From Acinetobacter phage ABPH49: a stretch of DNA of 64,000 nt. The translations under genes and the position numbers were made by a program. This document shows positions 40,521 to 56,254 of the stretch, piece by piece; within the stretch, counting starts at the first letter, position 1; each line of letters opens with the position of its first letter. The notes under the pieces were generated by a model. The model saw only the letters and a list, made by a program, of their open reading frames with translations, was not told the origin of the DNA and did no database searches. Location of the stretch: sequence record MH533020.1; one strand, 5' to 3'.

Positions 40521-40857
40521 AGGTCAACAGCCGAAAAGCTGTGATCGTCTAAAACAGCCTGTGCGCTGTTTTAAGGCGTTTTCATGCTAAGGTGATAAAT
40601 GGTATGGCTTACAGCCCGAAAGCCTCGCAGTGGTCCGCCTGTGAAGCCGTTTAGATGATAATGGTTCTCAACAAGTTGGTGGTAGGATTTTTAGGGTGAT
40701 TGGTGGGTTTTGGGGGTTGTATTGATCATTGGTTGGTGATATTCTGTTAGATCGGTGTTGGTTGTGGGTGATACCATTCCGCCAGCGGCTAAGGCCGGTT
40801 TCCAACTGGTGGCAATGCCTCGAGGCTCGCCGCTGTTCGCCCTGGGTAATCTTGTGA

Positions 40858-40890
40858 CGAAAACAAGAAACCCGGCGCTGTGGCCGGGCT
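40858..40890 (-). terminator. rho-independent terminator (CCCGGCCACAGCGCCGGG + TTTCTTGTTTTCG on the - strand)
   Basis: GC hairpin plus T-rich tail a short distance downstream of the stop of the 40968..41318 gene. Confidence 0.55.
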
Positions 40891-40967
40891 TGTGGTGGGT
40901 GTTACTGTGGGTTACTGCTGGGTGTGAAACAACCATTTAGCCGCTTCATTGCGGGCCGCGACCTCTT

Positions 40968-41318
40968 CTAGAACTCTCCCCAGCTGATCCGGCTGATATG
41001 GCGGTTTTCCATTGCTGCCTGTACTGACAGATCAAAGGGGGAGAAACCATAGCGCACTATGCGGATCTCTTCAAAACCGGTGTAATACTCATTGCCGAAC
41101 TTCTTGGCTGAGAAGACCGCCTCGATCGTGTACTCCCGGTTGCCGTCGTTCACCTCTTCAATGAGGACAGTCTCACGCATTGCCCAATTCTGACAATCGC
41201 GGATAACTTGGCAAGCTTCAGGGCGGAGGGTGCCAAAATTCACGGCGTGAGCCAGCGCAGCAGGGCCAAAGGTGCGGGCAATAGCGATAACATCGGCGCG
41301 GGTTTCGATAGTGAACAT
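40968..41318 (-). CDS. hypothetical protein
   Basis: internal ATG (MFTIETRAD...) with RBS AAAAAGGAATCAC; promoter TTTACA-17-TACTAT and 5'-UTR hairpin GGGAGGCAATACCGCCTCCC upstream. Confidence 0.5.
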   Translation of the reverse strand: MFTIETRADVIAIARTFGPAALAHAVNFGTLRPEACQVIRDCQNWAMRETVLIEEVNDGNREYTIEAVFSAKKFGNEYYTGFEEIRIVRYGFSPFDLSVQAAMENRHISRISWGEF

Positions 41319-41340
41319 GGTGTGATTCCTTTTTGTGGGT

Positions 41341-41395
41341 GGAGGCGGTATTGCCTCCCGATGTGTTAATAGTAGGTCATCTGGCGCAGGATGTA
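41341..41395 (-). promoter_or_regulatory. promoter (TTTACA-17-TACTAT) plus 5'-UTR hairpin GGGAGGC-AATAC-CGCCTCCC
   Basis: the same promoter-hairpin-RBS layout as the repeated cassettes further right. Confidence 0.45.
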
Positions 41396-41415
41396 AAGCG
41401 GATAAGTGAAATAAA

Positions 41416-41445
41416 TGCAAAAAACCCCGGCACTACGGCCGGAGT
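41416..41445 (-). terminator. rho-independent terminator (CCGGCCGTAGTGCCGGGG + TTTTTTG on the - strand)
   Basis: hairpin plus T6 after the stop of the 41433..41705 gene. Confidence 0.55.
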
Positions 41446-41705
41446 TCGTTCGTGATTTCGTTGGCTGCGGCGATCTGCCGTAGGCGTGCCAATCTGTCAA
41501 GGTAGGTGCTATAAGCCTGCATTAGGGCGGCTGGCTCTTCCCGGTCATACTGCAAAGACACCCGGCGATCGTCTTCCATGCCAACGATCCAGAAATAGGC
41601 GTGATCGCTTTCTTCCACCGCAACCAGTTGTAACCAGTTAGGGGACATCCCGTCATCGTCAACAGGGGTTACGATACACTCTTCAAGCTTGATTGATTTG
41701 GTCAT
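41433..41705 (-). CDS. hypothetical protein
   Basis: ORF track 90 aa. Confidence 0.5.
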   Translation of the reverse strand: MTKSIKLEECIVTPVDDDGMSPNWLQLVAVEESDHAYFWIVGMEDDRRVSLQYDREEPAALMQAYSTYLDRLARLRQIAAANEITNELRP

Positions 41706-42019
41706 GATAAAGCCTCATTGGTTGGAAAATTTACTACCTGACACCGAACTTTATCAGGATAGGACCTTCCTGTTATAAAGTCAATAAAAATCGCATCTGT
41801 AAATTCAATGCTTACTGAATCATCACACCAGTTAACTATGTAATTTCTGTTTTCGAGTTGTTTGCGGGTGATGGGTTTTGCACCTGCGGCTTTCATAGAA
41901 GACCCAAGGATTTTATGGACTATCCACACATGCGCCGATCCCCGGTAAGATTTTTCTCCCTCGCTCAACAAATGGTCAAGGGCCTTTTCTGGACTGGTAA
42001 AGTTATAAGACATGTGCAT
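41702..42019 (-). CDS. hypothetical protein
   Basis: internal ATG (MHMSYNFTSPEK...) of track ORF 41702..42145. Confidence 0.45.
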   Translation of the reverse strand: MHMSYNFTSPEKALDHLLSEGEKSYRGSAHVWIVHKILGSSMKAAGAKPITRKQLENRNYIVNWCDDSVSIEFTDAIFIDFITGRSYPDKVRCQVVNFPTNEALS

Positions 42020-42059
42020 GATTAGGGTCTCATATAGGCCCCTTTCGGGGCCGGGTTGG

Positions 42060-42326
42060 TTACTTGTACAGTTTGACAAAGTCGCGGAAAATGTCGTTCC
42101 AGTCAGGACCGTTTTGCAGCTGGTAAGGCTTGCCGTGGTGGTCATAGTTCATGGCGCTAACTTCACCAGTGGCAAAGAAGCCGCTGTCATATGCTGCTTT
42201 CTCGGCCTTGCGGATCACGGCGTTGATCCGGTTTCCGTTCGGGTTGCCGTTGCTCTCAGCGTTCAATTGCTTGGCGGTAACTTCCAGATTTTTCAGGGCT
42301 GTTCTGATGAATTTAACTTTGTTCAC
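42060..42326 (-). CDS. hypothetical protein
   Basis: ORF track 88 aa. Confidence 0.5.
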   Translation of the reverse strand: MNKVKFIRTALKNLEVTAKQLNAESNGNPNGNRINAVIRKAEKAAYDSGFFATGEVSAMNYDHHGKPYQLQNGPDWNDIFRDFVKLYK

Positions 42327-42423
42327 TTTACATTACCTTTCGGGGTGGCTGGCGGTGTGCCTTGCCTCTGGAAACAATAATAGGACCTTTCGGCCCTGAA
42401 GTCTTTAGCAAAAAGTGCTATTT

Positions 42424-42582
42424 TTATCGTTTACCGCTTGCACGGTTATTCAGCCAATCCCGAACCATGCGGATCGCCTCATAATTGTAACCTTCAGCCT
42501 GCATTCTGGCCTCTAACTGCATTTTGGTTAGGTTGAGCCTACGGATCCGCCGGGCGTACTGATAAGCCTGATCTTTTGTCAT
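42424..42582 (-). CDS. hypothetical small protein (52 aa)
   Basis: ATGA coupling; below the track cutoff. Confidence 0.35.
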   Translation of the reverse strand: MTKDQAYQYARRIRRLNLTKMQLEARMQAEGYNYEAIRMVRDWLNNRASGKR

Positions 42583-43093: not shown

Positions 43094-43094
43094 G

Positions 43095-43190
43095 ATGTTT
43101 ACTCTTTAGTCTGGCGGGAACCATTCCCGCTTGATGTAATGATTATAGCTGATCACGCGGGTGATGTTTAGCAATTCGTGCTATTTTGGG
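43095..43190 (-). promoter_or_regulatory. promoter (TATAAT -10) plus conserved 5'-UTR hairpin GCGGGAATGGTTCCCGCC, cassette copy 1
   Basis: hairpin at 43114-43130 immediately upstream of the RBS and ATG at 43093. Confidence 0.55.
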
Positions 43191-43224
43191 ATATTTCTTC
43201 CAGATGATAAAGCTTATCATTTGC

Positions 43225-43385
43225 ATTCTCACCTAAAAGGCCCTGAGAGCGATTCTAAGCGTTTTGCCGTTTTGGCTACCCTCTAAAACCGCCTGTAATC
43301 CATTCTAAGCCGCTTTTGCCTGAAGCCTAGCGGTTATACCTCTTTGAAGAGATCTCACTAATGCGAGCTATTCTCATCTAGAAAA
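43225..43385. repeat. dispersed intergenic repeat (about 150 bp) containing the AGAGATCTC palindrome; second copy at 44590-44730
   Basis: blocks ...CCTGTAA..TAAGCCG.TTT...AGCC...GAGATCTCACTAAT...ATTCTCA shared by both loci. Confidence 0.45.
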
Positions 43386-43646
43386 TCAGGAATTATGTGA
43401 TAAAAGCTTGTCAACGCTTGCCAAGTATGATTTAAGCAGGCTGATGCTCTTCATGTGGTCAACGTGCCCGGCCTTGCCGTTCTGGCTGTTGGTCTTAGTT
43501 TTCCTATACCGTGCCAACAACAACAGGTAAAGATCTGTGTTATGGCGGTTAGCGAAAGGCGGCGTTTGCCGCTCTGGTAAAGCCAGTATGTGACAGGGGG
43601 CAAATCGGCGGGATTGGTCCAGATCGTTACGGCGGTTAGCGCCCAT
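43386..43646 (-). CDS. hypothetical basic protein
   Basis: track ORF 86 aa with RBS GAGGA, but low-complexity and internally repetitive DNA; weak. Confidence 0.25.
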   Translation of the reverse strand: MGANRRNDLDQSRRFAPCHILALPERQTPPFANRHNTDLYLLLLARYRKTKTNSQNGKAGHVDHMKSISLLKSYLASVDKLLSHNS

Positions 43647-43686
43647 GAGAAGATCCTCAAAGATGGGGCCTTACGGCCCCTGTTGG

Positions 43687-43920
43687 TTAACGTAAAGCCT
43701 TGACGGTTTCGCCATAGGAATAATCAATAGGCGATCCGGGGTGATCAGCGGTAATCACATCGACGCCGGTTTGCTTCAGCACGATCCCGGCGACCGTTTC
43801 GTAAATAGGCTGGCGGACGTCGTCGCCGCTTTCGTTTGTGGCGTCATAGTAGCCGGTTAGGATTTCGTCGCCCGCTTGAAGGTTTTCAGCGTTGATCAGT
43901 TGGCGCGTTTTAGTAGTCAT
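43687..43920 (-). CDS. hypothetical protein
   Basis: internal ATG (MTTKTRQLINAEN...) of track ORF 43687..44004; hairpin GGGGCCGCACAAGGCCCC in the leader. Confidence 0.45.
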   Translation of the reverse strand: MTTKTRQLINAENLQAGDEILTGYYDATNESGDDVRQPIYETVAGIVLKQTGVDVITADHPGSPIDYSYGETVKALR

Positions 43921-43963
43921 ACGTAAAGCCTCTATAGTGGGGCCTTGTGCGGCCCCTGTTAGG

Positions 43964-44447
43964 TTAGAAGTTGTGGTAACCGTCGATGCTATTAGGGTTG
44001 ACAAAGGGGAAATGATGATTCAGCGTGTTGCGGCCCCATTGTGCCATATTCATGGAGGCCAGATCCCGGCGCTCAACTGCTGCGGCGTATGCCTCGGCCT
44101 GTTCTGCGGCGTCATTCTCAACAAAGGCGCGGATCTTCTCGCATACGTTATCCGGTAGCCTTGCCAACTCATGATAGGCGAACATGTAGCCATTGAAAGC
44201 GGTGATAACCCGGCCTTGGAACTCAGCAAAGCGTGAATGGTGGTAATTGTAAGACGTTGGATCAATGAAATGCTCTACCGGTGAAACGCGGATATCATCT
44301 GGCTTGCAGAATTGCCAAACAGCCTTGCCAAGGTCTAAGCACAATTCGCCGTCAGCTGCAATATTGATGACGGTTGCATTGATGAGGCCTTTGCTGATGG
44401 AATCGAAAATAACTTTCTGGCCTACGCAATAGATTGACTTTTTCATG
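43964..44447 (-). CDS. hypothetical protein
   Basis: internal ATG (MKKSIYCVGQKVIF...) with RBS AAAGAGG. Confidence 0.5.
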
Positions 44448-44589
44448 GTGTTGCCTCTTTGTTGGCGTTGTTTCGTTCTGATGAGGTAATTATAGATCAA
44501 CGGGTGGGAGATGCAAGCGGATTTTTCAACTTTTTGCATCTTTTTCGTTGTTGAGAACGCTTATAGTTTACATTCTCATCTTGCGGGGT

Positions 44590-44730
44590 GTTTTGTCCAA
44601 ACTGGTGTTTTAGCTGTTGTCAAGCCGTCTTAAAACGGCCTGTAAGGGCCTATAAGGCGTTTTATCCGTTAGCCTTGCCGTTGTATGGCTTCGCAGAGAT
44701 CTCGCTAATAGGAATAATTCTCAATTGGAA
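44590..44730. repeat. second copy of the dispersed intergenic repeat (see 43225-43385)
   Basis: shared blocks including CGCAGAGATCTCGCTAATAGGAATAATTCTCA. Confidence 0.45.
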
Positions 44731-44740
44731 AAGCCCGGAT

Positions 44741-45085
44741 TTACCGGACCTTTATTGGCAACACGCAACCCCATTCCGGGCGCTGCTTTTCTGCTACGCT
44801 TTCCAACTCTTCAGCCTCATAGCCTGACGTTCTCAGATCAAACAAGGCCGCGTCTATTTCTTCTATCTTCTTTACAAGCTCGTTTTTGCGGGCCTGTAAG
44901 GCATCGTCTAACGCTTCTATTGCCTGTTTGACCGTCTCCCCTTTTGCCTCTAGATAACCCCGATCCCTGCCGGGCAAGCTCCCGGCGCTGGTGCTGGCCG
45001 TCCAGCGTCCACGCTTAGACCAGAAAACCCGGAAGCCTTTAACCTCAAAGATGAAATTTTTCATTACGTGGCAAAAGCGGATCAT
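44741..45085 (-). CDS. HicB-like (UPF0150 fold) protein
   Basis: FRVFWSKRGRWTASTSAGSLPG...GETVKQAIEALDDALQ resembles the HicB antitoxin N-terminal domain; RBS GAGGAAAG. Confidence 0.4.
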   Translation of the reverse strand: MIRFCHVMKNFIFEVKGFRVFWSKRGRWTASTSAGSLPGRDRGYLEAKGETVKQAIEALDDALQARKNELVKKIEEIDAALFDLRTSGYEAEELESVAEKQRPEWGCVLPIKVR

Positions 45086-45297
45086 ATCTCTTTCCTCGCT
45101 TGTAAGTAAAGCACCGCCGTTAAGTAGGACTCATCGGCCCACTCTTTAACCGCATCCATAAAGGATGGGTATTTGTAGCTCTTAGCCTCGGGTGTTCCGT
45201 GCCAAGGGTAGATAGTCTGATAAACCTCTTTTAATACCTCTTCCCGGCGCTGTTGTGTCATGGATTCAGGATCATAACGCAAAGGTAAATTGTTCAT
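45082..45297 (-). CDS. hypothetical protein
   Basis: ORF track 71 aa. Confidence 0.5.
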   Translation of the reverse strand: MNNLPLRYDPESMTQQRREEVLKEVYQTIYPWHGTPEAKSYKYPSFMDAVKEWADESYLTAVLYLQARKEI

Positions 45298-45740
45298 TTC
45301 TTGGCAAGCTCCCGATAAAGGCGATCATGGTAGGCCGGGCCGCGTTCGTTAACGTCGATATAAGCCTGCGTTGCGATCCGGCTCTGGTCTGGGTCACAAA
45401 TCAGAGTAGTAATGCCGCCAGCAACTACAGACACGCGGCCAAGATAATAAACATAAGCGCCGCACTCTGTGAAAATGGTGCAATTCTGGCGCAGGTATGG
45501 TAACAGGTATTTATCCCCCATTGCACGGGCCTTGTAAATAGCCTGTGAGCCGTTGATCAGGCGCTTGATGTGATGCGGGTCGTTGATCGCCTTGTTTGGG
45601 CTTCCCATGTACTGATAACGGGCCTCGGCGATGTTTTTGGCCTTGGCTTCAAGCTCTGGGATCATAACGTTGATCCGGGCCTGTTCCTGCGCCGCTGGCG
45701 TCAACTCATCAAAGTAAAACAGTTTTGAAAGATTCATCAT
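45294..45740 (-). CDS. hypothetical protein
   Basis: internal ATG (MMNLSKLFYFDEL...) with RBS CAAGGGGC. Confidence 0.5.
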   Translation of the reverse strand: MMNLSKLFYFDELTPAAQEQARINVMIPELEAKAKNIAEARYQYMGSPNKAINDPHHIKRLINGSQAIYKARAMGDKYLLPYLRQNCTIFTECGAYVYYLGRVSVVAGGITTLICDPDQSRIATQAYIDVNERGPAYHDRLYRELAKK

Positions 45741-45836
45741 AAGCCCCTTGGCTTGTTGGTTACCTTTGACCGGTGAAGCCTCGCAAGGCCCCACCTCAAA
45801 GATATTATGGGACCAGTTCGGCCCCTTGTCAACACT

Positions 45837-46226
45837 TTAAATATAAACTTTCCCGTCGTCGCCGACGTATGGATCACAGCTCCCGGCTTTTTTGCTCATC
45901 GCTGTAAGAACGTCGCCAGTGTTGCCAAGGCCGCGATCCCAGAATCCTACGCCGTGCCCGTTGCGAGTTAACCAAAAGTCATGCCCGGACAATTCGAAAG
46001 AGTGGAGGCCGTCGGCGTCTAGACGTTCCATAATGGTATAAGCATCTTTCCAAAACGCATGGCACTCTAATTTCACCTGCTCCACAGTCTCGGCGGCCAG
46101 CTCAAAGGCTTGGAGATCCTCCACCTCTTCACCAGTGGCGGGATCCGTGCCCGGCGTGCTCCACAGCATGGCGGTGATATAGGCCTTTACAAAAGCGTTG
46201 AATTGTGGGTTATCTGAGTATTGCAT
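45837..46226 (-). CDS. hypothetical protein
   Basis: ATG (MQYSDNPQFNAF...) with RBS AAAAGAGATA; the track ORF start is a TTG. Confidence 0.5.
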   Translation of the reverse strand: MQYSDNPQFNAFVKAYITAMLWSTPGTDPATGEEVEDLQAFELAAETVEQVKLECHAFWKDAYTIMERLDADGLHSFELSGHDFWLTRNGHGVGFWDRGLGNTGDVLTAMSKKAGSCDPYVGDDGKVYI

Positions 46227-46279
46227 AATGGTATCTCTTTTCAAAGGGGCCGGGGTATCCGGCCCTTGTGGTTAGTATT

Positions 46280-46495
46280 TTACGCCAATTCGGTGATGGT
46301 TGCAACAGCGCCAAGCATTACATATTCCGAACCTTCAGCGGTGAAGTGACGATCGCCGATATAGCTTACAAAATCAGACTCGCCGACGTTACGCATAAAA
46401 CACTTATTGTCAGAATCACGAACAAAGAATTGAACCTTCTCTTTCTTGTTGGTGTAGAACTTGCCAGCGCTGCGAGTGGTTTTGGTCTGGTACAT
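46280..46495 (-). CDS. hypothetical protein
   Basis: ORF track 71 aa. Confidence 0.5.
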   Translation of the reverse strand: MYQTKTTRSAGKFYTNKKEKVQFFVRDSDNKCFMRNVGESDFVSYIGDRHFTAEGSEYVMLGAVATITELA

Positions 46496-46568
46496 TTGGG
46501 ATTTCCTCTTGTTGTCCCGTTTCGATATAAAAGATTATACATCACCCACGGGACAACGCAAGCACATT

Positions 46569-46721
46569 TTAGAGATAAGTGATCGAAAACTCCCAACTGA
46601 TTGAAAACGTTTTGTAAACCAGCCAGCAAATCAGACCTACAAGTGCCAGATCACACAGGACAGACAAGCCAAGGGCGGCTAGGTATTTACGGCGCAGGCG
46701 CTTTGTGGTTGAATTTTCCAT
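46569..46721 (-). CDS. small membrane protein
   Basis: internal ATG with RBS AAGGGGGAA; TM segment LGLSVLCDLALVGLICWLVY. Confidence 0.4.
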   Translation of the reverse strand: MENSTTKRLRRKYLAALGLSVLCDLALVGLICWLVYKTFSISWEFSITYL

Positions 46722-46731
46722 GTGTTCCCCC

Positions 46732-47016
46732 TTAGAACCAGTTGGCTGAGTCGTTGAATTTTTGATCGCCGTAGCGGCCGGTAAAGTACAGGCGAACCAG
46801 TGTTGAGAATCGCTCACAGGTCACTGATACAATCAAAAGCGACAAGGTAGCATCCATTTGATCCCACTCCTCAAGCTTCAGTCCGCCAGCCTGCGCCGCC
46901 TGTTGTATGCGCTTCAATTCATCATGGCACGCCGCCCGGGTCCAGCCTGTAAGGCTACCAGTCCCGATCACTTGCTGCAATACGGCATTGTTTACGGGTA
47001 AAGGTTGGTTTGTCAT
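46732..47016 (-). CDS. hypothetical protein
   Basis: ORF track 94 aa. Confidence 0.5.
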   Translation of the reverse strand: MTNQPLPVNNAVLQQVIGTGSLTGWTRAACHDELKRIQQAAQAGGLKLEEWDQMDATLSLLIVSVTCERFSTLVRLYFTGRYGDQKFNDSANWF

Positions 47017-47022
47017 GGTGCT

Positions 47023-47160
47023 ATCCTCTTAGAAGTTGGCCGCGTGGCCGGTTTGGTAAATAGAATCAAGTGCCTTAAAGATCCCGATCATTCTGTCGGC
47101 GTCAAGTCGGTTTACTGATAACTCAACCAGCTTGTAAATCAGTTCGTGGATGATTGACAT
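47023..47160 (-). CDS. hypothetical small protein (45 aa)
   Basis: RBS AGGAG 7 nt upstream of ATG; below the track cutoff. Confidence 0.35.
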
Positions 47161-47205
47161 CTTTAAGGCTCCTGTGCGGGCCGTGGTGGCCCGCTGTAGT
47201 TTGGG

Positions 47206-47625
47206 TTAGCGCTGATAGCCGATCAGCTCAAAACGGGCACCGGCAGCGCGGTAATTGCAACATTCACAGGCTGCGGGGGTGAAGTCCGTCTCTTTCTCAC
47301 CATTGCCCAAAAATTTATAAAGGCGATCCAGTCGCAAAACAGACTTTTCGATCTTGGCTTCCCACTCCGCCGGGATTTCTTCGCGGTGTTCACCATTGGC
47401 CCAGAACAGGCGGCAATCTTCGCACACCATGAGACTGATCGGATCTTTTGATGGCTCCAATTCGAAACCGTTGTTTAAGATCACGTGCTTCACGGCTTCC
47501 ACCATAGACGGGCTTTCGTTGTATTTGCCGGATACCGGGTCGATCTCGATCATTCCGATAAATGAACCTTCACGCTCTACAGCCATGCGGTTTGATGTGA
47601 CGCGGGTCAAAGTGCAGTTATACAT
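47206..47625 (-). CDS. hypothetical protein (Cys-containing)
   Basis: ORF track 139 aa. Confidence 0.5.
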   Translation of the reverse strand: MYNCTLTRVTSNRMAVEREGSFIGMIEIDPVSGKYNESPSMVEAVKHVILNNGFELEPSKDPISLMVCEDCRLFWANGEHREEIPAEWEAKIEKSVLRLDRLYKFLGNGEKETDFTPAACECCNYRAAGARFELIGYQR

Positions 47626-47848
47626 GGTAAAATCCTTTGTTTCTGTTGGTTGATAACTCTTTATATGCGGCTATCTTAGCAATGATCATAACCGCATGTA
47701 AAGGATTATTTTTCGGTAATGTGTAAAATTTTTGGCGCTTTGTTCACTGGTGCGGGCTTCTCGCCGTACTGGTGGATAAAGAAAGCAAAAACACAGGCTA
47801 ACATGATATGCTTTTTCCAGTCAATACGCACCGTATGCTTTTTTGTGC

Positions 47849-48064
47849 TCATAGGTAACGCCCCCACACCTTAGGGATCATGGCATCGATCACCATCGCC
47901 AGACCCGCCAGCGGCCCGGCAACAAACAGGGCAACCGCTCCGCATACCGCCACCGAATCGGCGGACCCGGTTGTCATAATCCCGATCCCGGCGGCAATGT
48001 ACGCCACAGGGACCGCAACTAACATTAAGAATATTGCAGCGGATACTGTGATTAAGCAATTCAT
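47849..48064 (-). CDS. membrane protein
   Basis: internal ATG (MNCLITVSAAIFLMLVAVPVAYIAAGIG...) of track ORF 47849..48127. Confidence 0.45.
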   Translation of the reverse strand: MNCLITVSAAIFLMLVAVPVAYIAAGIGIMTTGSADSVAVCGAVALFVAGPLAGLAMVIDAMIPKVWGRYL

Positions 48065-48372
48065 TTTTCTAATCTCTGGGGCGGTGTCCGCCCCGTTGGG
48101 TGTCAACTTACCGGCACCGCGTGCCAACTATTGACTATGGTTTTATCTTTACCGCGTGCCTCTTCAAGGTCGCGATAGTGTTTCAAGGCCCGATCCTTGT
48201 CAGTGTATACGCCTTTCACCTCGGCGGCAAGCGGGGCCGCCGTGGCTTGCGTGACAATGTAAATCACGTTAGTGATCCGCCGGGATCGTATCGTTAGCGA
48301 TGGCGGCGATAACGCCTTGCACCATATGATCCGGCAGGTAATCGCTCTCCGCCTCGGCGATGCGCTGGCCGT

Positions 48373-48576
48373 TCACCTCGCATCATAGCCGATCTTGAAC
48401 CCTTCAGCGGTACGGTAAACCATAACCACCAGCGGGCAAGTTTTGGATTCGTCCTTGTGGTGTTTAAAGGTGATCATGGTGACGTGCCCGGAGATCTTCA
48501 CCTCTGCATCGATGTGACGTTCTACAGCGGACAGGAAGAAAAATTGATTTGCTTGGCTCATGCGTTGGATAGTCAT
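48373..48576 (-). CDS. hypothetical protein
   Basis: ORF track 67 aa; directly downstream of cassette copy 2 (RBS AGGAAACT). Confidence 0.5.
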   Translation of the reverse strand: MTIQRMSQANQFFFLSAVERHIDAEVKISGHVTMITFKHHKDESKTCPLVVMVYRTAEGFKIGYDAR

Positions 48577-48660
48577 TTTAGTTTCCTCTGTTGGCGGGAA
48601 CCATTCCCGCCGCTTGATAAGAAGTATAGGCGATTGTTCGCGGTGCTGTCAACTAAATAA
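48577..48660 (-). promoter_or_regulatory. promoter (TTGACA-18-TATACT) plus conserved 5'-UTR hairpin GGCGGGAATGGTTCCCGCC, cassette copy 2
   Basis: hairpin at 48593-48611; the same order -35/-10/hairpin/RBS/ATG as the other copies. Confidence 0.6.
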
Positions 48661-49186
48661 ACAGGACTTTATCAATTAATTTTTCCACCAGATCCGCGCG
48701 GTGTGCTGCGTTGCCGTTCGTCTGGCTCAGGGATACGGCGCAGGCGGCGCGGTATGCGGCGATCATGGGTTTAAGCTGCACGCGGTTAACCGTGGCTCGG
48801 GCGGCGGTGTCTGCGTTGTCACTCTGGCCTTTCATGAAGGTTATAGCGTTCTCTTCGCCGACCTTATATTTTGTAATGATCCGGCGATCTTTGAGGTAGG
48901 AAACGATCTCTTTCTGGAAGGAATAGAACCCCTCGAGGCTTCCACGTTCCAACATTTCCCCAGCAACAGACCAGACACAAGCGGCGGCGTAGGTCCCGGT
49001 TTGGCATGAGTCGGCCAGAACGTTTACCGCGTGGCGGAATTCACCGGCGGCGATCAGCTGGCGGATCTCATAAGCGCGGAATTTATAAAAGGTATGCATG
49101 GCGCTTCCAACGGGCGCTGTTCGGCGCTCGGCGATCGCCTGATCAACGATGTCAAATTTCGGCTGCAATTCGTTTAAAGTGTACAT
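48653..49186 (-). CDS. hypothetical protein
   Basis: ORF track 177 aa. Confidence 0.55.
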   Translation of the reverse strand: MYTLNELQPKFDIVDQAIAERRTAPVGSAMHTFYKFRAYEIRQLIAAGEFRHAVNVLADSCQTGTYAAACVWSVAGEMLERGSLEGFYSFQKEIVSYLKDRRIITKYKVGEENAITFMKGQSDNADTAARATVNRVQLKPMIAAYRAACAVSLSQTNGNAAHRADLVEKLIDKVLFI

Positions 49187-49273
49187 GGTAGATCCTCAAC
49201 TGTTTTTGTGGGTTAACTTCTTTAACTGATGCCGCCATTGTATAGCGGCACCTTAAAGAATGCAACCTTTATT

Positions 49274-49429
49274 TTACCTCGCAAAGTATGCCGGGTTAAC
49301 CTTGATCCCGTGGCGGGTCAGTTCGTCAGACCGCACACGTTGACCAGCGGTAAAGCGGAAAACCCCCGCGCCTGTCCCGATCGTTACATCTACCAGACAA
49401 AACAGCAATTTACAGATTGAGCCTTTCAT
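49274..49429 (-). CDS. small hydrophobic protein
   Basis: internal ATG with RBS GAGGTAA. Confidence 0.4.
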   Translation of the reverse strand: MKGSICKLLFCLVDVTIGTGAGVFRFTAGQRVRSDELTRHGIKVNPAYFAR

Positions 49430-49440
49430 ATTGTTACCTC

Positions 49441-49545
49441 TTAAAAAATGTATTGTAAAAGTGAACCTACACCATACCAGAACGCCGCACACAAAACAAG
49501 GATTGCGGCATAAACTTTTTGATTAAACGTGAAGCGTTGACCCAT
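49441..49545 (-). CDS. small TM protein (34 aa)
   Basis: RBS GGGGGAACGGCA ATG; hydrophobic; below the track cutoff. Confidence 0.35.
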   Translation of the reverse strand: MGQRFTFNQKVYAAILVLCAAFWYGVGSLLQYIF

Positions 49546-49750
49546 TGCCGTTCCCCCCGCTAGGTTTCTTGTTTAGCTGCTGAACCATCCACGCCGGGAC
49601 CTTCTGGCCCGCTGGCTTGTGGGTGAATTTCGTGGTTTTCTTGGTGATGCGGATAAATACAGATGGCATTTTGTAGTCCCTTTTGGTTTGCTTTCGTTTG
49701 CATATGCCGCCATTCTACACGACGGCATAAACCAACGTCAAGCTATTATT

Positions 49751-49936
49751 TTATGGCATTGGCTCAACTTCAGGGCCGGGGATACACTGCGCCAAAATGT
49801 AGCGGTGATCCTTGCGGCGCTCGGCTGCTACGATCTCACAGGTTACGCGGTCGTCGTAGGAGTCAATAACGTAATCTTCACAGTTCATATAACCGAAGTT
49901 TGACAAAAAGCACATAGTTGCGAATACTTCAAACAT
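49751..49936 (-). CDS. hypothetical small protein
   Basis: ORF track 61 aa. Confidence 0.4.
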   Translation of the reverse strand: MFEVFATMCFLSNFGYMNCEDYVIDSYDDRVTCEIVAAERRKDHRYILAQCIPGPEVEPMP

Positions 49937-50092
49937 TTACACACCCTCCCGAACATAAAATTTTGTGCCTGCTGGCAGGCGTTTGCCGTAGCCCTCTCGA
50001 TCTCTCAGTCGCTGGCGGGCTTCTTTCTCATTGTGGCCGTGAACCTTGAGGGGGTGAGCCACGCCGGGGATATTTACAAAATAGTGTTTCAT
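49937..50092 (-). CDS. hypothetical small basic protein
   Basis: internal ATG (MKHYFVNIPG...) of track ORF 49937..50128. Confidence 0.4.
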   Translation of the reverse strand: MKHYFVNIPGVAHPLKVHGHNEKEARQRLRDREGYGKRLPAGTKFYVREGV

Positions 50093-50094
50093 AG

Positions 50095-50202
50095 TTACCA
50101 GCCTTTTACAATTGCGATTGCTGCACATGATACCAGAGCAACCAGAGTGAAGAAAACAGCGCCGATCGCGCTAACAGGTACTTGTGTCAATTCATAAGTC
50201 AT
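50095..50202 (-). CDS. small TM protein (35 aa)
   Basis: hydrophobic MTYELTQVPVSAIGAVFFTLVALVSCAAIAIVKGW; below the track cutoff. Confidence 0.3.
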   Translation of the reverse strand: MTYELTQVPVSAIGAVFFTLVALVSCAAIAIVKGW

Positions 50203-50306
50203 TTTACATTTCCTTGTCGGTTTGGTCGGGGCCTTTCCCGTCCTGATGTAAGTAATATACACCTACTCGATCGGGGTGTCAACAAGGAAACAGAAAATAA
50301 TTTAGA

Positions 50307-50531
50307 TTATTTTCGTGTGACTCGGATCGCCGTAAAAATCTGCTTTCCCTCTTCACAGATCAGGATCTGCGAGGTACTAACCCGGATACCTTCACGCGAT
50401 GCCGTAGCTGTCAGCGAGCTAACCGCCTGCGCGTAGGTTTTTGGAGCCTCCACAAAATAAACCAGTGAATAGCCTAGCTGTTGCGCCTTCAGGTGGCGGA
50501 TAAAAGCGGTTAGACTAAGAATGTTTTCCAT
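50307..50531 (-). CDS. hypothetical protein
   Basis: ORF track 74 aa. Confidence 0.45.
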   Translation of the reverse strand: MENILSLTAFIRHLKAQQLGYSLVYFVEAPKTYAQAVSSLTATASREGIRVSTSQILICEEGKQIFTAIRVTRK

Positions 50532-50589
50532 CGTGTCGCATTACCTTTGTTTGTGGGTCAAAAGCGGCCCGTGTGGGCCGCTACGCTGT

Positions 50590-50730
50590 TTAATCCTTCA
50601 GGCCTTCCCAGTGCCACGCCTTGCCGCGTTGCGTCTTGTTGGCCTTGCTACGCTTAACCTTGTCGCGGTCGTGGTAGCCAAATTTTTCTTTGCTTGCCGC
50701 GTTGCGGGTTACTGCATTGTTGGTGATCAT
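50590..50730 (-). CDS. hypothetical small basic protein
   Basis: internal ATG with RBS AGGATAA. Confidence 0.4.
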   Translation of the reverse strand: MITNNAVTRNAASKEKFGYHDRDKVKRSKANKTQRGKAWHWEGLKD

Positions 50731-50740
50731 GCTTATTATC

Positions 50741-51046
50741 CTATTTGTTTGATTTAAGTTCAAGTGCATAACGGCGATCAATCTCATCCTGCACCAGTTC
50801 CAACGATTGGCGGGTGTAATGGTATAGCACCTCGCCGCCTAACTTCTCGAGCCGGGACAATACTGCATCGGCTACGAATTCATTTAACGCGCCGTTTTCC
50901 CGCGTGGTGTACACATCACCAAACAACTCATATTCAATATAATGAAACACTTTATGCTTTCTCCGCATAAGCTCCCGTTTGATGAGGGGCGGCGCATAGT
51001 ACGCCACCACCGCCACGGCCGCAAGGCCTGTTATCATATCAATCAT
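50741..51046 (-). CDS. hypothetical protein (N-terminal TM)
   Basis: ORF track 101 aa. Confidence 0.5.
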   Translation of the reverse strand: MIDMITGLAAVAVVAYYAPPLIKRELMRRKHKVFHYIEYELFGDVYTTRENGALNEFVADAVLSRLEKLGGEVLYHYTRQSLELVQDEIDRRYALELKSNK

Positions 51047-51461
51047 TCATCGCGTCATCCAGTAAACGGGCGATATCTTCCACGATGACGGCGCAGATCG
51101 TCCAGCTGATTACCTCCCAATCATCACCCTTTTGAGCATAGAGCGCCTTGCCGATTTCGTCAAGGTTGAAGTCCGCCAAGCCTCGGCACTCTTTGAGCAT
51201 TTCCAGAGATGATCCGTTGCCACAGTTTGCGGCCAGATTGGACAAATGATCTTGCACCTGATCCGCATACTTTTTGAGGAAAGCGCCGCACTCAGTATAG
51301 TAAATGAAACTTGTACCGCCTGCCGCGCCGTGGTTGGCGATGTCTGAAGCTTTCTCCTTGAAGTCTGCCCAGCTGCCGTGCACATTGGCAACCGCGCGGA
51401 TCAGTTTTGCATTCAGAGCGTTGTCAGTAACAAAAGATTTCAGAGTGATATTCTTAGCCAT
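51039..51461 (-). CDS. hypothetical protein
   Basis: ORF track 140 aa. Confidence 0.5.
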   Translation of the reverse strand: MAKNITLKSFVTDNALNAKLIRAVANVHGSWADFKEKASDIANHGAAGGTSFIYYTECGAFLKKYADQVQDHLSNLAANCGNGSSLEMLKECRGLADFNLDEIGKALYAQKGDDWEVISWTICAVIVEDIARLLDDAMND

Positions 51462-51571
51462 GATATTTACCTTATATAAAATGCCTGTCGGCGGTTGTTT
51501 GGGTTAGGGTGTTTCCCTTCCCCTGATGCCACCTATTATAGGGCGGCACCGGGAAGAGTCAACAACTATTT

Positions 51572-51937
51572 TTAATTTTCTTCGTCTTCCTCTTCGTTTT
51601 CCAACTCTTCGATCTTCTCTTCCAGATCGCTGATCTCGTTTTCTAATTCCTCTTCCTCTTCCATTAAGCCCTTATAATCCTCCTCGTCCTCTTTATCAAG
51701 GCTGTCGGTCCAGTCATTCAGGCCGCCACGGAAAGCGGTCGGGTCCAGCTGTTGGAGCGCGTAGCCCGTGTTGTAGGTTCCACCGGCGATCTCAACCGTC
51801 CCGTAGACCTCATCAAGATACTCCATGTAATCCTCATCGCTGCGGCTGATTTCGTAGGATTCCATTTCAGCCTGTTTTTCCTTCAGGTTATTGCGGGCGA
51901 TGATCAGTTGAGCGTTCAAAGTTTCGATGTTAGCCAT
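51572..51937 (-). CDS. hypothetical protein with strongly acidic C-terminal tail
   Basis: ORF track 121 aa; preceded by cassette copy 3. Confidence 0.55.
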   Translation of the reverse strand: MANIETLNAQLIIARNNLKEKQAEMESYEISRSDEDYMEYLDEVYGTVEIAGGTYNTGYALQQLDPTAFRGGLNDWTDSLDKEDEEDYKGLMEEEEELENEISDLEEKIEELENEEEDEEN

Positions 51938-52020
51938 TATATTTATCTCTCATATTGTGGCGGGAACCATTCTCGCCTTGATGTGTCGTATCTTACTACT
52001 ACCTGTTTTGCGTGTCAAAC
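51938..52020 (-). promoter_or_regulatory. promoter (TTGACA-17-TAAGAT) plus 5'-UTR hairpin GGCGAGAATGGTTCCCGCC, cassette copy 3
   Basis: hairpin 51958-51976; then AGAGATAAATATA ATG. Confidence 0.6.
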
Positions 52021-52026
52021 TTATTT

Positions 52027-52221
52027 TTAAATCTTTTTGCCTTGCCAATCAAACTTGAAAATCACTTTTAAATCAGGGCCTAGCAGGTTTCCGGCGGCAC
52101 TCAGTGCGGCGATCCGCTGGCTGGCTTCTTTCTCTATGTCGTTAAGAGTCTTTACCTCGCCTTTGTGGTTTACCGGCTGTATATACAAAACCGGCCCCGT
52201 TGATAAGCTTATGCTGTACAT
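52027..52221 (-). CDS. hypothetical protein
   Basis: internal ATG (MYSISLSTGPV...) with RBS AAGGAGG. Confidence 0.45.
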   Translation of the reverse strand: MYSISLSTGPVLYIQPVNHKGEVKTLNDIEKEASQRIAALSAAGNLLGPDLKVIFKFDWQGKKI

Positions 52222-52541
52222 TGTGAAACCTCCTTGAACCGTGCGGCCTCGTCTGGGTGTGCGTAGCGACCGAGGCCTATCACATACTCCCAATTTTCGG
52301 CAGTCATTACAAAAGTTTGGTGACGGCGGTCAAGTATGCCGCTTAATGCCGCCTGATCATTATAGACCGTTGGGCTTTTTGCGTCGATAACATAGCGGTT
52401 TAAGCTTGCCGCCTCGCCAGCCGTCAACACGTGGCCGGTATAACATGTATAACCCTCACAAAGCGGGTTTTTAGCCAAGTGATCGACCCGGCCTTGTAAA
52501 GACTCCAAAGAAGGGAGATCAGGATTCTGATTGTATTTCAT
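52209..52541 (-). CDS. hypothetical protein
   Basis: ORF track 110 aa. Confidence 0.5.
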   Translation of the reverse strand: MKYNQNPDLPSLESLQGRVDHLAKNPLCEGYTCYTGHVLTAGEAASLNRYVIDAKSPTVYNDQAALSGILDRRHQTFVMTAENWEYVIGLGRYAHPDEAARFKEVSQCTA

Positions 52542-52606
52542 AGTTTAACCTCGTGTCAACAAAACTTTTATGAGTGGGACCAGACAAGATCCCACTGGTA
52601 AAAGCC

Positions 52607-52786
52607 TTAGTGACGGTTTAAGCTCAAAGTGCCGCCGGTATGGGTTAGGCCCACCGTCCAGCCGTCGCGGCCCTTAACCGGTTGTTTGGTTTTGCCGCCT
52701 ACCTTGCGGAGGATAGCCGCTTCTTTGCGGGCCTGTTCGCGGGTGGTGTGAGTTGCGCCGATAGTAACGATAGTAACGTTTTTCAT
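52607..52786 (-). CDS. hypothetical small basic protein (59 aa)
   Basis: ATG directly downstream of cassette copy 4 (RBS AAAGGAAAGG); below the track cutoff. Confidence 0.4.
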   Translation of the reverse strand: MKNVTIVTIGATHTTREQARKEAAILRKVGGKTKQPVKGRDGWTVGLTHTGGTLSLNRH

Positions 52787-52860
52787 AATGCCTTTCCTTT
52801 TGGTCTGGCGGGAACCATTCCCGCCTTGATATTGAGTATATTAGATTATCTTGTTTTGCC
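52787..52860 (-). promoter_or_regulatory. promoter (TTGACA-17-TAATAT) plus 5'-UTR hairpin GGCGGGAATGGTTCCCGCC, cassette copy 4
   Basis: hairpin 52807-52825; consensus hexamers with 17-nt spacer. Confidence 0.65.
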
Positions 52861-52862
52861 TG

Positions 52863-53216
52863 TCAACCGATCATTTTAGTTTTTACTGAAATTTTCGGGT
52901 GTGGAAGGATCGACCCGTCCAGCAATTCCCCGCCTGCGTGGCGCTGGCGGAAGCGATCCACAAAGTTCAACAATTCGGTATAGCTCGAGATCCTGCCGCG
53001 TGCTGATCTGTTTAGCCCTGCGTACTTAGGATCCCCATGAGACGATGATACGGTCGCCACGCGGCCCGGGGTGATAGGTTGGAAGTATACCGCACGCGCG
53101 GCGCGGATTGACTCAATACCCGGGGCGGCTTTCTTGGCTACGGTTTCGCCATGCTTTACAAACAAGATCTTGTTAAGTTCTGGGGCGTAGGCGTGGATCT
53201 CGATAACCATTTTCAT
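52863..53216 (-). CDS. hypothetical protein
   Basis: ORF track 117 aa; preceded by cassette copy 5. Confidence 0.5.
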   Translation of the reverse strand: MKMVIEIHAYAPELNKILFVKHGETVAKKAAPGIESIRAARAVYFQPITPGRVATVSSSHGDPKYAGLNRSARGRISSYTELLNFVDRFRQRHAGGELLDGSILPHPKISVKTKMIG

Positions 53217-53300
53217 CTGTCATTACCTTTTTGATTTTGGCGGGAACCATTCCCGCCGCTTGATAACTAATTTACGCCCTTATCTTGTTGGCGTCAACTA
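53217..53300 (-). promoter_or_regulatory. promoter (TTGACG-17-TAAATT) plus 5'-UTR hairpin GGCGGGAATGGTTCCCGCC, cassette copy 5
   Basis: hairpin 53239-53257; then AAAAAGG RBS and ATG 53216. Confidence 0.6.
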
Positions 53301-54685: not shown

Positions 54686-55019
54686 ATTGTGTTGACAACC
54701 CAGCGCAAGCTGGGTTATTCTGTTGTCAGCAGGAAACGCCACCCCACGGCGAAAAGGCGGGGCTAACGCAGCCGGGCACGGCGCGGAAGGTTAATCGCCG
54801 GTAGCTCGTCCAAAATTTCTTTTGTAAAGATTGAGAAAAAGCTTGATCGTGGGTGTGAGTGTGCTATTCTTATCACATGGCACCGGATGACGGGGAAGAC
54901 AAACACCACCCCTGCCTGTCATTCTGCAAACGAGAATGATTATCATTCAACATCCTAAATGAGAACCATTCTCATCCCGACCGGGAGAGATCTAGACCGA
55001 AAAACTGATTTACAAAAAC

Positions 55020-55235
55020 AGGATACCCTAGAAAAATTTTTCGCCCTCCCCTCTTCTGATATAATACGATCGGAAATTTAAAAAATCGATCGAGATCCTA
55101 AAAATTTTTCGCCCTGCCCTTCTGTAGATTACGAAACCGAAAATGAAAAACCGATCGAGTACCAGAAAATTTTTTCGCCCTCCCCTGCCCGGGGTATTTC
55201 GATCTCGATTTTGAAAAACCGATCGAGAACTCAAG
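55020..55235. repeat. three tandem direct repeats of about 65 bp (core AAAAATTTTTCGCCCTCCCCT ... AAAAA(T/C)CGATCGAGA); candidate iterons or origin
   Basis: read directly from the sequence; the first unit carries an extended -10 TGATATAAT; no credible ORF (only the spurious 55028..55234 ORF). Confidence 0.6.
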
Positions 55236-55379
55236 TTTTTTTTAATCCCACGAGGTTGGTAGGAGCGGGCCGATGGAGACCCTTCCGGTGGGTCAAGGTG
55301 TTGGGATACGTGGCGAAGTTATCCACACTTGGAGGTAAGTGGGTGGTAAGCTGTAGGTGGATGGAGGCCCTGAGTGGGT

Positions 55380-55470
55380 GATTACCGGCAACCGAGTGGC
55401 CGCCGGGATCTCAATTTGAATCTCGATTTGGATTTGATTTTGATTCAGGTTTTATAATATCCTGAAAAAT
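55380..55470. repeat. AT-rich tract with short GATTTG/GATTTTG direct repeats; candidate DNA-unwinding or origin element
   Basis: ATCTCAATTTGAATCTCGATTTGGATTTGATTTTGATTCAGG...TATAATATCC. Confidence 0.4.
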
Positions 55471-55471
55471 A

Positions 55472-56254
55472 TCAAATATCTCCAAATATCTTGTCGAGAT
55501 TGTACTGGTGGGACGGGTAAATCATCTGGAAAAGATCTCCCTCTTCTTTCGTAGGCTTCGTCCAGTCAACAAATATCTTCTTCACCTCTGCGATAGGGAT
55601 CGTTAAATATCCGCTATCACCGGGCAGCTGCATCCCGACCTTACCCTCTGTAAGGTTCAACACACATCCATTGCGGTAAACGTAGAAGCCGTGGCCGCAC
55701 CACACGGCACGAATACCCTGCACTGGGTCCATGATCTGATACTCACCACGCTTCAAGTCAGGGTACATGGTGCAACGCCTCAGGCCGAGCGACGTAATTA
55801 CCTCAACAAACAACGGGGCGACTTTATGTGCGGCTATGTGGGAATCAACAGTCATGGCGTATGGGAGGTTTCTAGTAAGTTCTTCCCTCATGTGGGTCAC
55901 CATAATCTTCAGCTGTTCCAGAGACAGCTCGTCAAGGTCTGGTTCCTCATGTAAGCCGCCTGACGCCTCTAGGGCACATACCACGTCATGGCGGAAGTCA
56001 TCCATCTTCTCGTAGACTTTGTCGTGGTACTCCATGAAGTCACTGAAGTCGGGGGCCGAAAGGCTGTTAAGCTCCTTCACCAATGGGTGCACGTCATCAA
56101 GATCATCAGCATTATCGAGATTGTTGGCAATCGTGGCAATCTCCGACATCAGGTCATCCGCACTCGGAGAGGCTGGAGTCTTGCAATTGTAATTGGCATA
56201 GTATTCGGTAACACCCAATACGTGATCCATAGTGATATGGTTTAGTGGCACAAA
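55472..56254 (-). CDS. hypothetical protein
   Basis: track ORF 55472..56383; the N-terminal 40 aa are low-complexity; GTG 56254 with SD AGGAGG preferred, ATG 56230 as alternative. Confidence 0.45.
   Translation of the reverse strand, partial: FVPLNHITMDHVLGVTEYYANYNCKTPASPSADDLMSEIATIANNLDNADDLDDVHPLVKELNSLSAPDFSDFMEYHDKVYEKMDDFRHDVVCALEASGGLHEEPDLDELSLEQLKIMVTHMREELTRNLPYAMTVDSHIAAHKVAPLFVEVITSLGLRRCTMYPDLKRGEYQIMDPVQGIRAVWCGHGFYVYRNGCVLNLTEGKVGMQLPGDSGYLTIPIAEVKKIFVDWTKPTKEEGDLFQMIYPSHQYNLDKIFGDI

Follow-up and report, generated by a model that had tools for sequence, protein, structure and literature searches.

What is the role of a promoter and hairpin that recur ahead of several small genes of Acinetobacter phage ABPH49 (sequence record MH533020.1)? 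The window analyzed here is a 64,000 nt stretch of this phage DNA, and the promoter-hairpin cassettes are located on its minus strand in a block of small genes, every one of which is annotated as hypothetical. The region has 97.6% identity to Serratia phage vB_SmaM-Kashira and approximately 80% identity to vB_SmaM-ChuuTotoro, both of which belong to the Vequintavirinae (rV5-like myoviruses, ~145 kb). By its sequence the window phage is itself a Serratia phage of this subfamily. An earlier note on this DNA described five minus-strand sites with a common layout of promoter, hairpin, Shine-Dalgarno sequence (SD) and ATG. The repeated promoter-hairpin layout is real and well supported. The element is very probably an RNA-level leader hairpin module placed close to the promoter, and protection of the ends of early mRNAs is tentatively proposed as its main function.

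A search of the window for the 19-mer GGCGGGAATGGTTCCCGCC, with up to three mismatches allowed, gives exactly five minus-strand sites, of which three are exact and two have one mismatch. The chance expectation from shuffles is 0.01 matches, and 8 hits were reached in none of 100 shuffles. The number of sites agrees with that first described. The five cassettes are as follows.

Positions 43094-43170, minus strand: cassette 1, with -35 TAAACA (43170-43165), a spacer of 17, -10 TATAAT (43147-43142), ATCAA, hairpin AGCGGGAATGGTTCCCGCC (43131-43113, one mismatch, AGCGGG...), an A-rich leader with an SD, and ATG 43093 of a 102-aa ORFan.
Positions 48577-48652, minus strand: cassette 2, with -35 TTGACA (48652-48647), a spacer of 18, -10 TATACT (48628-48623), ATCAAGC, hairpin GGCGGGAATGGTTCCCGCC (48611-48593, exact), a leader with an SD, and ATG 48576 of a 67-aa ORFan.
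Positions 51938-52018, minus strand: cassette 3, with -35 TTGACA (52018-52013), a spacer of 17, -10 TAAGAT (51995-51990), ATCAA, hairpin GGCGAGAATGGTTCCCGCC (51977-51959, one mismatch, GGCGAG...), and ATG 51937 of a 121-aa ORFan.
Positions 52787-52866, minus strand: cassette 4, with -35 TTGACA (52866-52861), -10 TAATAT/TATACT (52843-52836), ATCAA, hairpin GGCGGGAATGGTTCCCGCC (52825-52807, exact), and ATG 52786 of a 59-aa ORFan; the promoter reads TTGACA-17-TAATAT (52866-52838).
Positions 53217-53297, minus strand: cassette 5, with -35 TTGACG (53297-53292), a spacer of 17, -10 TAAATT (53274-53269), ATCAAGC, hairpin GGCGGGAATGGTTCCCGCC (53257-53239, exact), and ATG 53216 of a 117-aa ORFan.

The cassettes are 76-89 bp in size and have AT-rich DNA upstream of their promoters. 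The -35 hexamer is TTGAC(A/G) in four of the five and poor at the 43113 site, so that the term "near-consensus" used before for these promoters is slightly generous. Other details of the first description need small corrections: the variant hairpin at 51959-51977 was recognized but the second copy with one mismatch, at 43113-43131, was overlooked, and the span given for the fourth site (52787-52860) leaves out its -35. In all five cassettes the hairpin starts 9-12 nt 3' of a sigma-70-like -10, and next comes an A-rich leader that contains an SD. Between hairpin and ATG there are 16-22 nt, within the 15-25 nt previously estimated. Alignment of the five regions shows that ATCAA(G), the hairpin and CCA form a block common to all, and that the promoter spacers and coding sequences are dissimilar. 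As had been stated, the genes behind the cassettes are unrelated; the five proteins have no pairwise similarity and fall in separate PHROG families of unknown function.

Secondary structure modeling of the GGCGGGAATGGTTCCCGCC RNA shows an 8-bp stem and a 3-nt loop at approximately -13 kcal/mol, with the SD and AUG unpaired. The cassette 3 variant GGCGAGAATGGTTCCCGCC has an A·C mismatch and a lower stability of -6.2 to -7.7 kcal/mol. In Kashira there are five perfect GGCGGGAATGGTTCCCGCC copies in the same places as in the window, and the two imperfect window copies are therefore private point mutations. The cassette 1 site in Kashira has the perfect GGCGGG form. The cassette 3 hairpin is perfect in both Kashira and ChuuTotoro, and thus its G>A change is private to the window phage.

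The position of the hairpin was analyzed on the coding strand in the early regions of six phages, among them rV5, GAP31, phi92 and the jumbo phage 121Q. A promoter-like site was defined by at least 10 of 12 hexamer matches together with a downstream SD and start codon, and a compact hairpin by a length of no more than 26 nt and a value of -7.5 kcal/mol or better, the best local hairpin being taken for each site. A compact hairpin that starts 8-14 nt after the -10 is present at 43 of 119 promoter-like sites (36%), most often at 10-12 nt. Of 900 anchors placed at random in this DNA, 18 (2%) have such a hairpin, without a preferred offset (odds ratio 27.7, p = 1e-29). If the count is extended to any compact hairpin from the -10 to the start codon, 34 of 37 start at 8-12 nt. 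For leaders in which the start codon is more than 55 nt from the -10, five of seven hairpins begin 8-11 nt after the -10. The position of the hairpin is locked to the -10 and not to the ribosome binding site (RBS). A start-site rule (pyrimidine then purine, ~7 nt after the -10) predicts an unpaired 5' tail of 2-5 nt in 41 of 43 cases. The predicted start region, ATCAAG, ATCGAG or ATAGGG, is conserved.

A comparison of 32 unique hairpins bears on which strand, and which nucleic acid, is under selection. Their stems have 12 wobble pairs, and in every one of these the 5' arm supplies the G and the 3' arm the U. Folding favors the sense strand in 17 hairpins and the antisense strand in 5, with 10 ties (Wilcoxon p = 0.007). 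The arms are highly asymmetric, with 152 G-C vs 28 C-G pairs and 59 A-U vs 8 U-A pairs, and the 5' arm is almost all purine. For covariation, 21 hairpins whose stems are 8 bp long were aligned without gaps. Both-sided changes are present at six of the eight stem pairs (31 cells), which was reached by none of 500 shuffles. Shifting the partner by one column lowers pairing from 97.6% to ~63-66%; because the alignment was assembled from detected hairpins the high pairing is there by construction, and it is the variety of pair types that is informative.

Orthologous sites display the same type of change. The hairpin at 41.3 kb differs from its ChuuTotoro ortholog (AAGGC...GCCTT) by a compensatory G-C to A-U exchange, and the ChuuTotoro ortholog of cassette 1 keeps a hairpin of different sequence. 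The four shared GGCGGGAATGGTTCCCGCC-type hairpins have no differences in 76 positions between Kashira and ChuuTotoro, and the 60 nt upstream of these hairpins are ~10% different (a hand count from the sequences). The zero change in the shared hairpins represents purifying selection or homogenization. The G·U orientation, the advantage of the sense fold, the compensatory stems and the ortholog changes imply selection on a sense-strand RNA structure, and they argue against both a double-stranded DNA operator and an antisense terminator. The proposal in the earlier note that a stem-loop at a fixed distance from the promoter acts at the RNA level is supported by the lock to the -10, the covarying stems and the wobble pairs found only in the sense orientation. 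Conservation of structure rather than sequence in RNA is a feature of 5' stabilizer stem-loops, and it is found here.

Further promoters in the block carry different hairpins at the same distance, and other hairpins of the block lie around a -10 or in gaps without a promoter.

Positions 41317-41397, minus strand: same layout with another stem, TTTACA-17-TACTAT (41397-41369), cATCG, hairpin GGGAGGCAATACCGCCTCC, i.e., GGAGGC-AATACC-GCCTCC (41341-41359), and ATG 41316.
Positions 45772-45832, minus strand: same layout, TTGACA-17-CATAAT (45832-45804) and, 8 nt on, hairpin GGTGGGGCCT-TGCG-AGGCTTCACC (45772-45795) with two G·U pairs.
Positions 50224-50282, minus strand: same layout, TTGACA-17-TATATT (50282-50254), cATCA, hairpin GGACGGG-AAAGGC-CCCGACC (50224-50243).
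Positions 51501-51562, minus strand: same layout, TTGACT-16-TATAAT (51562-51535), cATCA, hairpin GGGGAAGGG-AAACA-CCCTAACCC (51501-51523).
Positions 49228-49252, 49704-49728 and 51525-51550, minus strand: hairpins with the -10 (TACAAT, TAGAAT and TATAAT) as the loop, the layout of a promoter-early stem-loop (PeSL).
Positions 42037-42052, 43665-43680, 43939-43956 and 46247-46265, minus strand: short, very GC-rich hairpins, e.g., GGGGCCGTAAGGCCCC, in gaps without a promoter.
Positions 47176-47194, 48078-48094, 50563-50582 and 52573-52596, minus strand: further short, very GC-rich hairpins in gaps without a promoter.

The hairpin at 41341-41359, which begins 9 nt after the -10 TACTAT, is the related but different one that had been noted before, and the hairpin at 50224-50243 is identical in ChuuTotoro. 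The block thus has three hairpin layouts: after a promoter, around the -10 (three promoters), and in short promoter-less gaps. The three hairpins that enclose the -10, of which the one at 51525-51550 belongs to the promoter at 51501-51562, form a second repeated family with the classic PeSL layout; their arms consist of the promoter spacer and a GC-rich discriminator (GGTGCCGC... / GG(C/T)GGCATC), with G·U wobbles. The hairpins in promoter-less gaps are 13-31 nt ahead of the next ATG and have little or no U-tract, the gaps being 38-65 nt where measured in Kashira. Outside the ORFan block, at plus-strand positions 14329-14388, there is TTGACA-18-TAGAAT and, 7 nt on, hairpin TTGCCCGGT-GATGA-GCCGGGCTG ahead of an SD and ATG, so that the layout recurs with a different stem.

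The element is also present in other phages. In rV5 the same stem is found behind early promoters with loops UGU and AAC, and the half-sites GGCGGGAA and TTCCCGCC are kept. GAP31 has the exact 19-mer GGCGGGAATGGTTCCCGCC and a GCCGGGGA...TCCCCGG(C/U) family behind its early promoters. Phage phi92 (Justusliebigvirus) and the 348-kb jumbo phage 121Q have TTGACA-16/17-TATAAT, then ACATC(A/G)AG and then a hairpin. A search of related phages had been recommended; it finds the element itself in Kashira, ChuuTotoro, rV5 and GAP31, and the architecture in phi92 and 121Q. The early regions of these genera have almost no nt similarity except for a few genes and the cassette itself. Scans of IMG/VR with the bare palindromes GCGGGAANNNTTCCCGC and CCGGGGANNNTCCCCGG gave, among the 243 matches listed, 55 that are terminator-like and 3 that are promoter-proximal, and these 3 led to the phi92-like phages and 121Q. 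The exact 19-mer GGCGGGAATGGTTCCCGCC is in four IMG/VR contigs, two of which are GC-rich and probably unrelated. The five-site hairpin is one sub-family of promoter-proximal leader hairpins in large enterobacterial myoviruses (Vequintavirinae, phi92-like and 121Q-like). The hairpins are described neither in the rV5 genome paper, which gives promoters and terminators only, nor in the RaK2 or PA5oct papers, and full-text searches that included Vequintavirinae found no description of them. The spread to other phage lineages and the resemblance to PeSLs were not seen in the earlier note.

A few early genes have 66-90% nt identity among rV5, phi92 and 121Q within otherwise unrelated regions.

Positions 18339-18672 of L006, 4994-5327 of L246 and 17186-17519 of L247: shared early-gene segments, among pairs across rV5, phi92 and 121Q.

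The shared genes point to horizontal exchange among the three phage lineages.

The leader appears to be built of parts. At the gene that encodes MKKSIYC..., the window (44447-44517) and ChuuTotoro (L008 9185-9270) agree in the promoter (CTTGCA...TATAAT/TATAGT) and in the ATCA start, and the hairpin, GGCGGGGAATGGTTCCCGCC, is present in ChuuTotoro and absent from the window phage; the hairpin is therefore an optional module within the leader. The Kashira copy of cassette 1 has orthologous flanks, yet 28 nt are identical to cassette 4. This suggests that the cassette 1 hairpin is a patch replacement by short-patch conversion between leaders, which would explain the identical copies within a genome. 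Short-patch recombination probably both maintains the identity of such copies and carries them from leader to leader. Among the indels examined between the window and Kashira there are no cassette-to-cassette junctions; microhomologies (ATAAT/ATGAT, ATGAAT and GGCGGA) are found instead. Deletions relative to Kashira are ORF (open reading frame)-precise: at window 45724-45803 (L001 5715-6170 in Kashira) genes 01990 and 02000 were lost via the ATGAAT and ATAAT/ATGAT microhomologies. The promoter-hairpin juxtaposition at 45772-45832 arose through such a deletion, which joins the promoter to a hairpin that is intercistronic in Kashira. A 1.9-kb segment at window 40640-42545 is missing from Kashira (L001, ~2550) and is bounded by the GGCGGA microhomology. 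These indels provide no direct evidence of cassette-mediated gene shuffling.

The hairpin does not fit an intrinsic terminator: there is no U-tract, and in a terminator scan of the window none of the five was flagged on the minus strand. On average 1.1 T are found in the 8 nt that follow the stem, and A makes up 51% of the leader. The same scan flags real terminators at 41422-41447 and 40868-40891. Terminators in these phages are the same kind of GC-rich stem with a T-run added (121Q, GAP31, and 41422-41447 in the window). Leader-type stems without a promoter ahead are found in 121Q (L108 ~7430-7460, GGCGGGAA-TAT-TTCCCGCC) and GAP31 (L007 17627-17655, GCCGGGA-TAAT-TTCCCGGC), and each is followed by six T; the T-run and the lack of a preceding promoter show that they are used as ordinary terminators. 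An antisense terminator, with the hairpin followed by TTGAT on the plus strand, was flagged once and was rejected, as the wobble pairs favor the sense strand.

What function could select for such a structure? The stem-loops at the 5' termini of ompA and papA mRNAs and of the T7 gene 10 leader stabilize those transcripts. We propose end protection of early mRNAs as the most likely main function of the cassette hairpin, a reading to which we assign about an even chance or slightly less and in which the start sites are predicted. The cassette would then consist of a host sigma-70-type promoter, a (c)ATCAAG start, an 8-bp GC-rich stem-loop within the first ~25 nt, an A-rich unstructured leader, an SD and ATG. 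Transcription would start at the A of cATCAA and leave 2-5 unpaired nt before the stable stem. With so short a tail, the 5' end should be acted on poorly by RppH and engaged poorly by the 5'-end sensor of RNase E, and the early mRNAs would be longer-lived, with the RBS left uncovered by the hairpin. The purine-rich 5' arm may in addition suit the initial transcribed region, which is our own suggestion. When transcription from an upstream promoter reads through, the hairpin would come to lie between two cistrons of the transcript and could impede 3' exonucleases. RNase E cleavage is more than tenfold slower when the 5' monophosphate end is base-paired (review PMC3997798, citing Emory 1992 and Bouvet & Belasco 1992).

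Several observations weigh against end protection. RNase E readily scans past a simple stem-loop, and for this reason a role as an obstacle to RNase E scanning was dropped (PMC9943677). The tail of 2-5 nt is a prediction, and a tail of 5 nt or more is expected to give weak 5'-end protection. Two of the window copies have destabilizing point mutations. The MKKSIYC leader has its hairpin in ChuuTotoro and none in the window phage, where it is dispensable. Stability alone would require neither that the five copies be exactly identical nor that the apex GAAUGGUUC recur. The block as it stands in Kashira has 23 intergenic gaps of at least 25 nt, and 21 of them contain a hairpin of -8 kcal/mol or better; hairpins are found in promoter-less gaps and at the three promoters with the -10 in the loop. 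Hairpins thus mark nearly all cistron boundaries, too many for a function restricted to primary 5' ends to account for all of them.

The ompA and T7 gene 10 5' stabilizer hairpins may be the functionally nearest analogues. In hairpins of this type the stem begins about 0-4 unpaired nt from the mRNA 5' end, and the tail predicted here is 2-5 nt. The ompA and papA 5' untranslated regions and the T7 gene 10 (phi10) leader, GGGAGACCACAACGGUUUCCC, likewise have a stable 7-10 bp hairpin at the mRNA start that is followed by an unstructured A/U-rich leader and RBS, and the T7 leader also shares the purine-rich 5' arm and G·U pairs in the stem. In those cases the 5' ends were mapped and the half-lives measured, whereas the 5' end of the present element is predicted; moreover, theirs is a single-gene feature, and the cassette hairpin is multi-copy, position-locked and found ahead of many genes in several phage lineages. 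REP-type (repetitive extragenic palindromic) intercistronic stabilizers are comparable in that they are GC-rich hairpins without a U-tract between cistrons, and nearly every gap in the block has a hairpin. REP-type hairpins block 3' exonucleases in polycistronic mRNAs. They are repeats of the host chromosome and have a consensus of their own, whereas the cassette hairpin is tied to a promoter at a fixed distance.

The sequence identity of the copies can also be read as the mark of an RNA operator, recognized by a phage or host RNA-binding protein or a small RNA that co-regulates an early-gene regulon through translation or stability. The exact 19-mer is present at five Kashira sites and at four orthologous ChuuTotoro sites with 0 of 76 positions changed while the promoter spacers diverge, and it occurs again in GAP31. 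The apex GAA-U(G/A)G-UUC recurs in most hairpins of three lineages, and each genome has a few preferred hairpin types, each in several identical copies. However, the loops vary (UGG, UAG, UGU, AAC, CAC, CGGU, AAGG) and the stems vary in a compensatory manner within single genomes. The cassette 1 ortholog in ChuuTotoro is a different hairpin, the MKKSIYC hairpin is found only there, and no candidate binding protein was identified. Short-patch gene conversion, as in the 28 nt identical between Kashira cassettes 1 and 4, explains copy identity equally well. This type of operator is rather unlikely. A binding site for a phage RNA-binding protein, one of the roles suggested earlier, may still apply, but the differing stems and loops in the same genomes, the MKKSIYC leader and the hairpins in nearly every gap argue against its being required. 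The translational operator that was also suggested does not agree with the fold, in which the hairpin leaves the SD and AUG free.

Among described systems the PeSL of T4-like phages comes closest, and the five copies lack the stem-loop placement that defines it. PeSLs are found in RB49/phi1, T4/PST and KVP40/nt-1 (PMC2839356, PMC4122927), and their stem-loop is upstream of, between or over the -35 and -10 (PMC2839356, Figure 2 legend; PMC4122927, Figure 3 legend). If the cassette were a PeSL-like element, the stem-loop would attenuate or terminate upstream transcription and the cassette would serve mainly as a substrate for homologous recombination that shuffles ORFans. The context is similar. 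Both systems have repeated intergenic cassettes (~75-100 bp there vs 76-89 bp here), near-identical within a genome, in a plastic block of small ORFans, and both display an AT-rich stretch upstream, a strong sigma-70-like promoter, a G-rich and then a C-rich arm, an SD and ATG. The classic RB49-type layout, in which the hairpin encloses the -10, is seen at three other window promoters, the cassette 1 hairpin is an apparent patch swap, and one leader hairpin was gained or lost. The carrier phages, in contrast, are not T4-like, and the hairpin is 9-12 nt downstream of the -10, inside its own mRNA, whereas a PeSL stem-loop precedes or spans the promoter and has been described as terminating transcription from upstream. 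The cassette hairpin has no U-tract, though these phages supply the same stems with a T-run at points of expected termination, and the indel junctions examined between the window and Kashira are microhomologies and not cassette-cassette recombination. A PeSL-like role for the five copies is, on balance, rather improbable.

We regard as unlikely an action at the level of transcription, in which a purine-rich start and its complement would help promoter escape, stop backtracking or keep the 5' end off the RBS. The initial transcribed sequence is known to affect escape at T5 N25-type promoters. The lock to the -10 and not to the RBS, the extreme asymmetry of the arms, the conserved start region and the free RBS in the fold all agree with such an action, but promoters in the same blocks use the same ATCAA start without any hairpin. 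The insulator form of this explanation, which we consider equally unlikely, holds that any ORFan behind the cassette is then expressed predictably.

A speculative and quite unlikely variant of recognition is that the hairpin is a tag. A factor common to the Vequintavirinae, phi92-like and 121Q-like phages, or a host factor, would read the GAA-UGG-UUC apex and mark early mRNAs as 'self'; as an equally speculative example, tagged mRNAs could be spared from a phage-stimulated RNase E attack on host mRNA of the T4 Srd kind. The rV5 gp11 protein is described as an Srd homolog (PMC3606486). A tblastn search with the GAP31 Srd-like 'anti-sigma factor' gave no match in the 64-kb window, the part of the genome covered. 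If true, such a tag would represent a cap-like self/non-self mark on the mRNAs of a bacterial virus.

A palindromic DNA operator at ~+3 to +21, to which a dimeric phage repressor binds and shuts off the early promoters, is very improbable. The perfect 8-bp inverted repeat with its 3-bp spacer is placed like lacO1, and the half-sites GGCGGGAA and TTCCCGCC are kept in rV5 around different central triplets. However, the imperfections are always sense-strand G·T and never A·C (12 vs 0), the loop length varies from 3 to 6 nt, one genome has several different stems, and the outer stem positions stay complementary though an operator would not need this. The strand-independent symmetry and fixed half-site spacing of palindromic operators are thus not found.

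An RNase III site, a nut/boxB antitermination site or an intrinsic terminator has nothing more in its favor than a conserved hairpin in an early phage transcript and is extremely improbable. RNase III needs about two helical turns, and the helix is 7-10 bp in all members, far too short for the processing site proposed earlier, which is a ~20 bp interrupted double helix. Promoter-proximal RNA structures in early phage transcripts are also seen in lambda nutL and nutR (boxA and boxB) and in HK022 put. The loop here is UGG on an 8-bp stem and not a GNRNA pentaloop on a 5-bp stem, and no boxA-like CGCTCTT or TGCTCTT (the reference boxA is CGCTCTTTA-like) is present on the minus strand at 38-57 kb. 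The put RNA has two stems in contrast to the single short hairpin here, and nut and put sites occur once per operon, whereas the cassettes are ahead of many single genes; the antitermination site suggested by the earlier note is accordingly set aside. An Rfam covariance-model scan of 38-57 kb, with E up to 5, gave only chance-level matches and none near the sites. A hairpin promoter of the N4 type, for a virion RNA polymerase, was also set aside because a canonical -35 and -10 are ahead of every copy. We know of no N4-type virion RNA polymerase in rV5-like phages.

Beyond the block, at positions 54690-55480, is a large ORF-free region where divergent transcription units switch. Positions 54731-54979 are among the few stretches with nt similarity to GAP31, phi92 and rV5. 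This stretch has a Fur-box-like GAGAATGATTATCATTC and a perfect palindrome ATGAGAAccaTTCTCAT, and after it come three ~65-bp repeats that start with AAAAATTTTTCGCCCT(C/G)CCC, together with AAACCGATCGAG motifs that recur at 55030-55230. A replication origin or a regulatory hub may be located here. The 'non-coding' box mentioned in the rV5 paper may be set beside this region.

If end protection by a leader hairpin is correct, several large enterobacterial phage groups place fast-evolving early ORFans, which may include host-takeover genes, behind a plug-in unit of promoter, protective hairpin and open RBS. Immediate-early transcription units could then be recognized by a simple signature in the sequence, even if all genes of a genome are annotated 'hypothetical'. 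The cassette would thus help in finding such units, and it would be a source of natural, compact expression parts. It would also extend the PeSL idea beyond T4-like phages, with the stem-loop placed differently, and would allow a direct test of how phage early mRNAs survive while host mRNA is destroyed.

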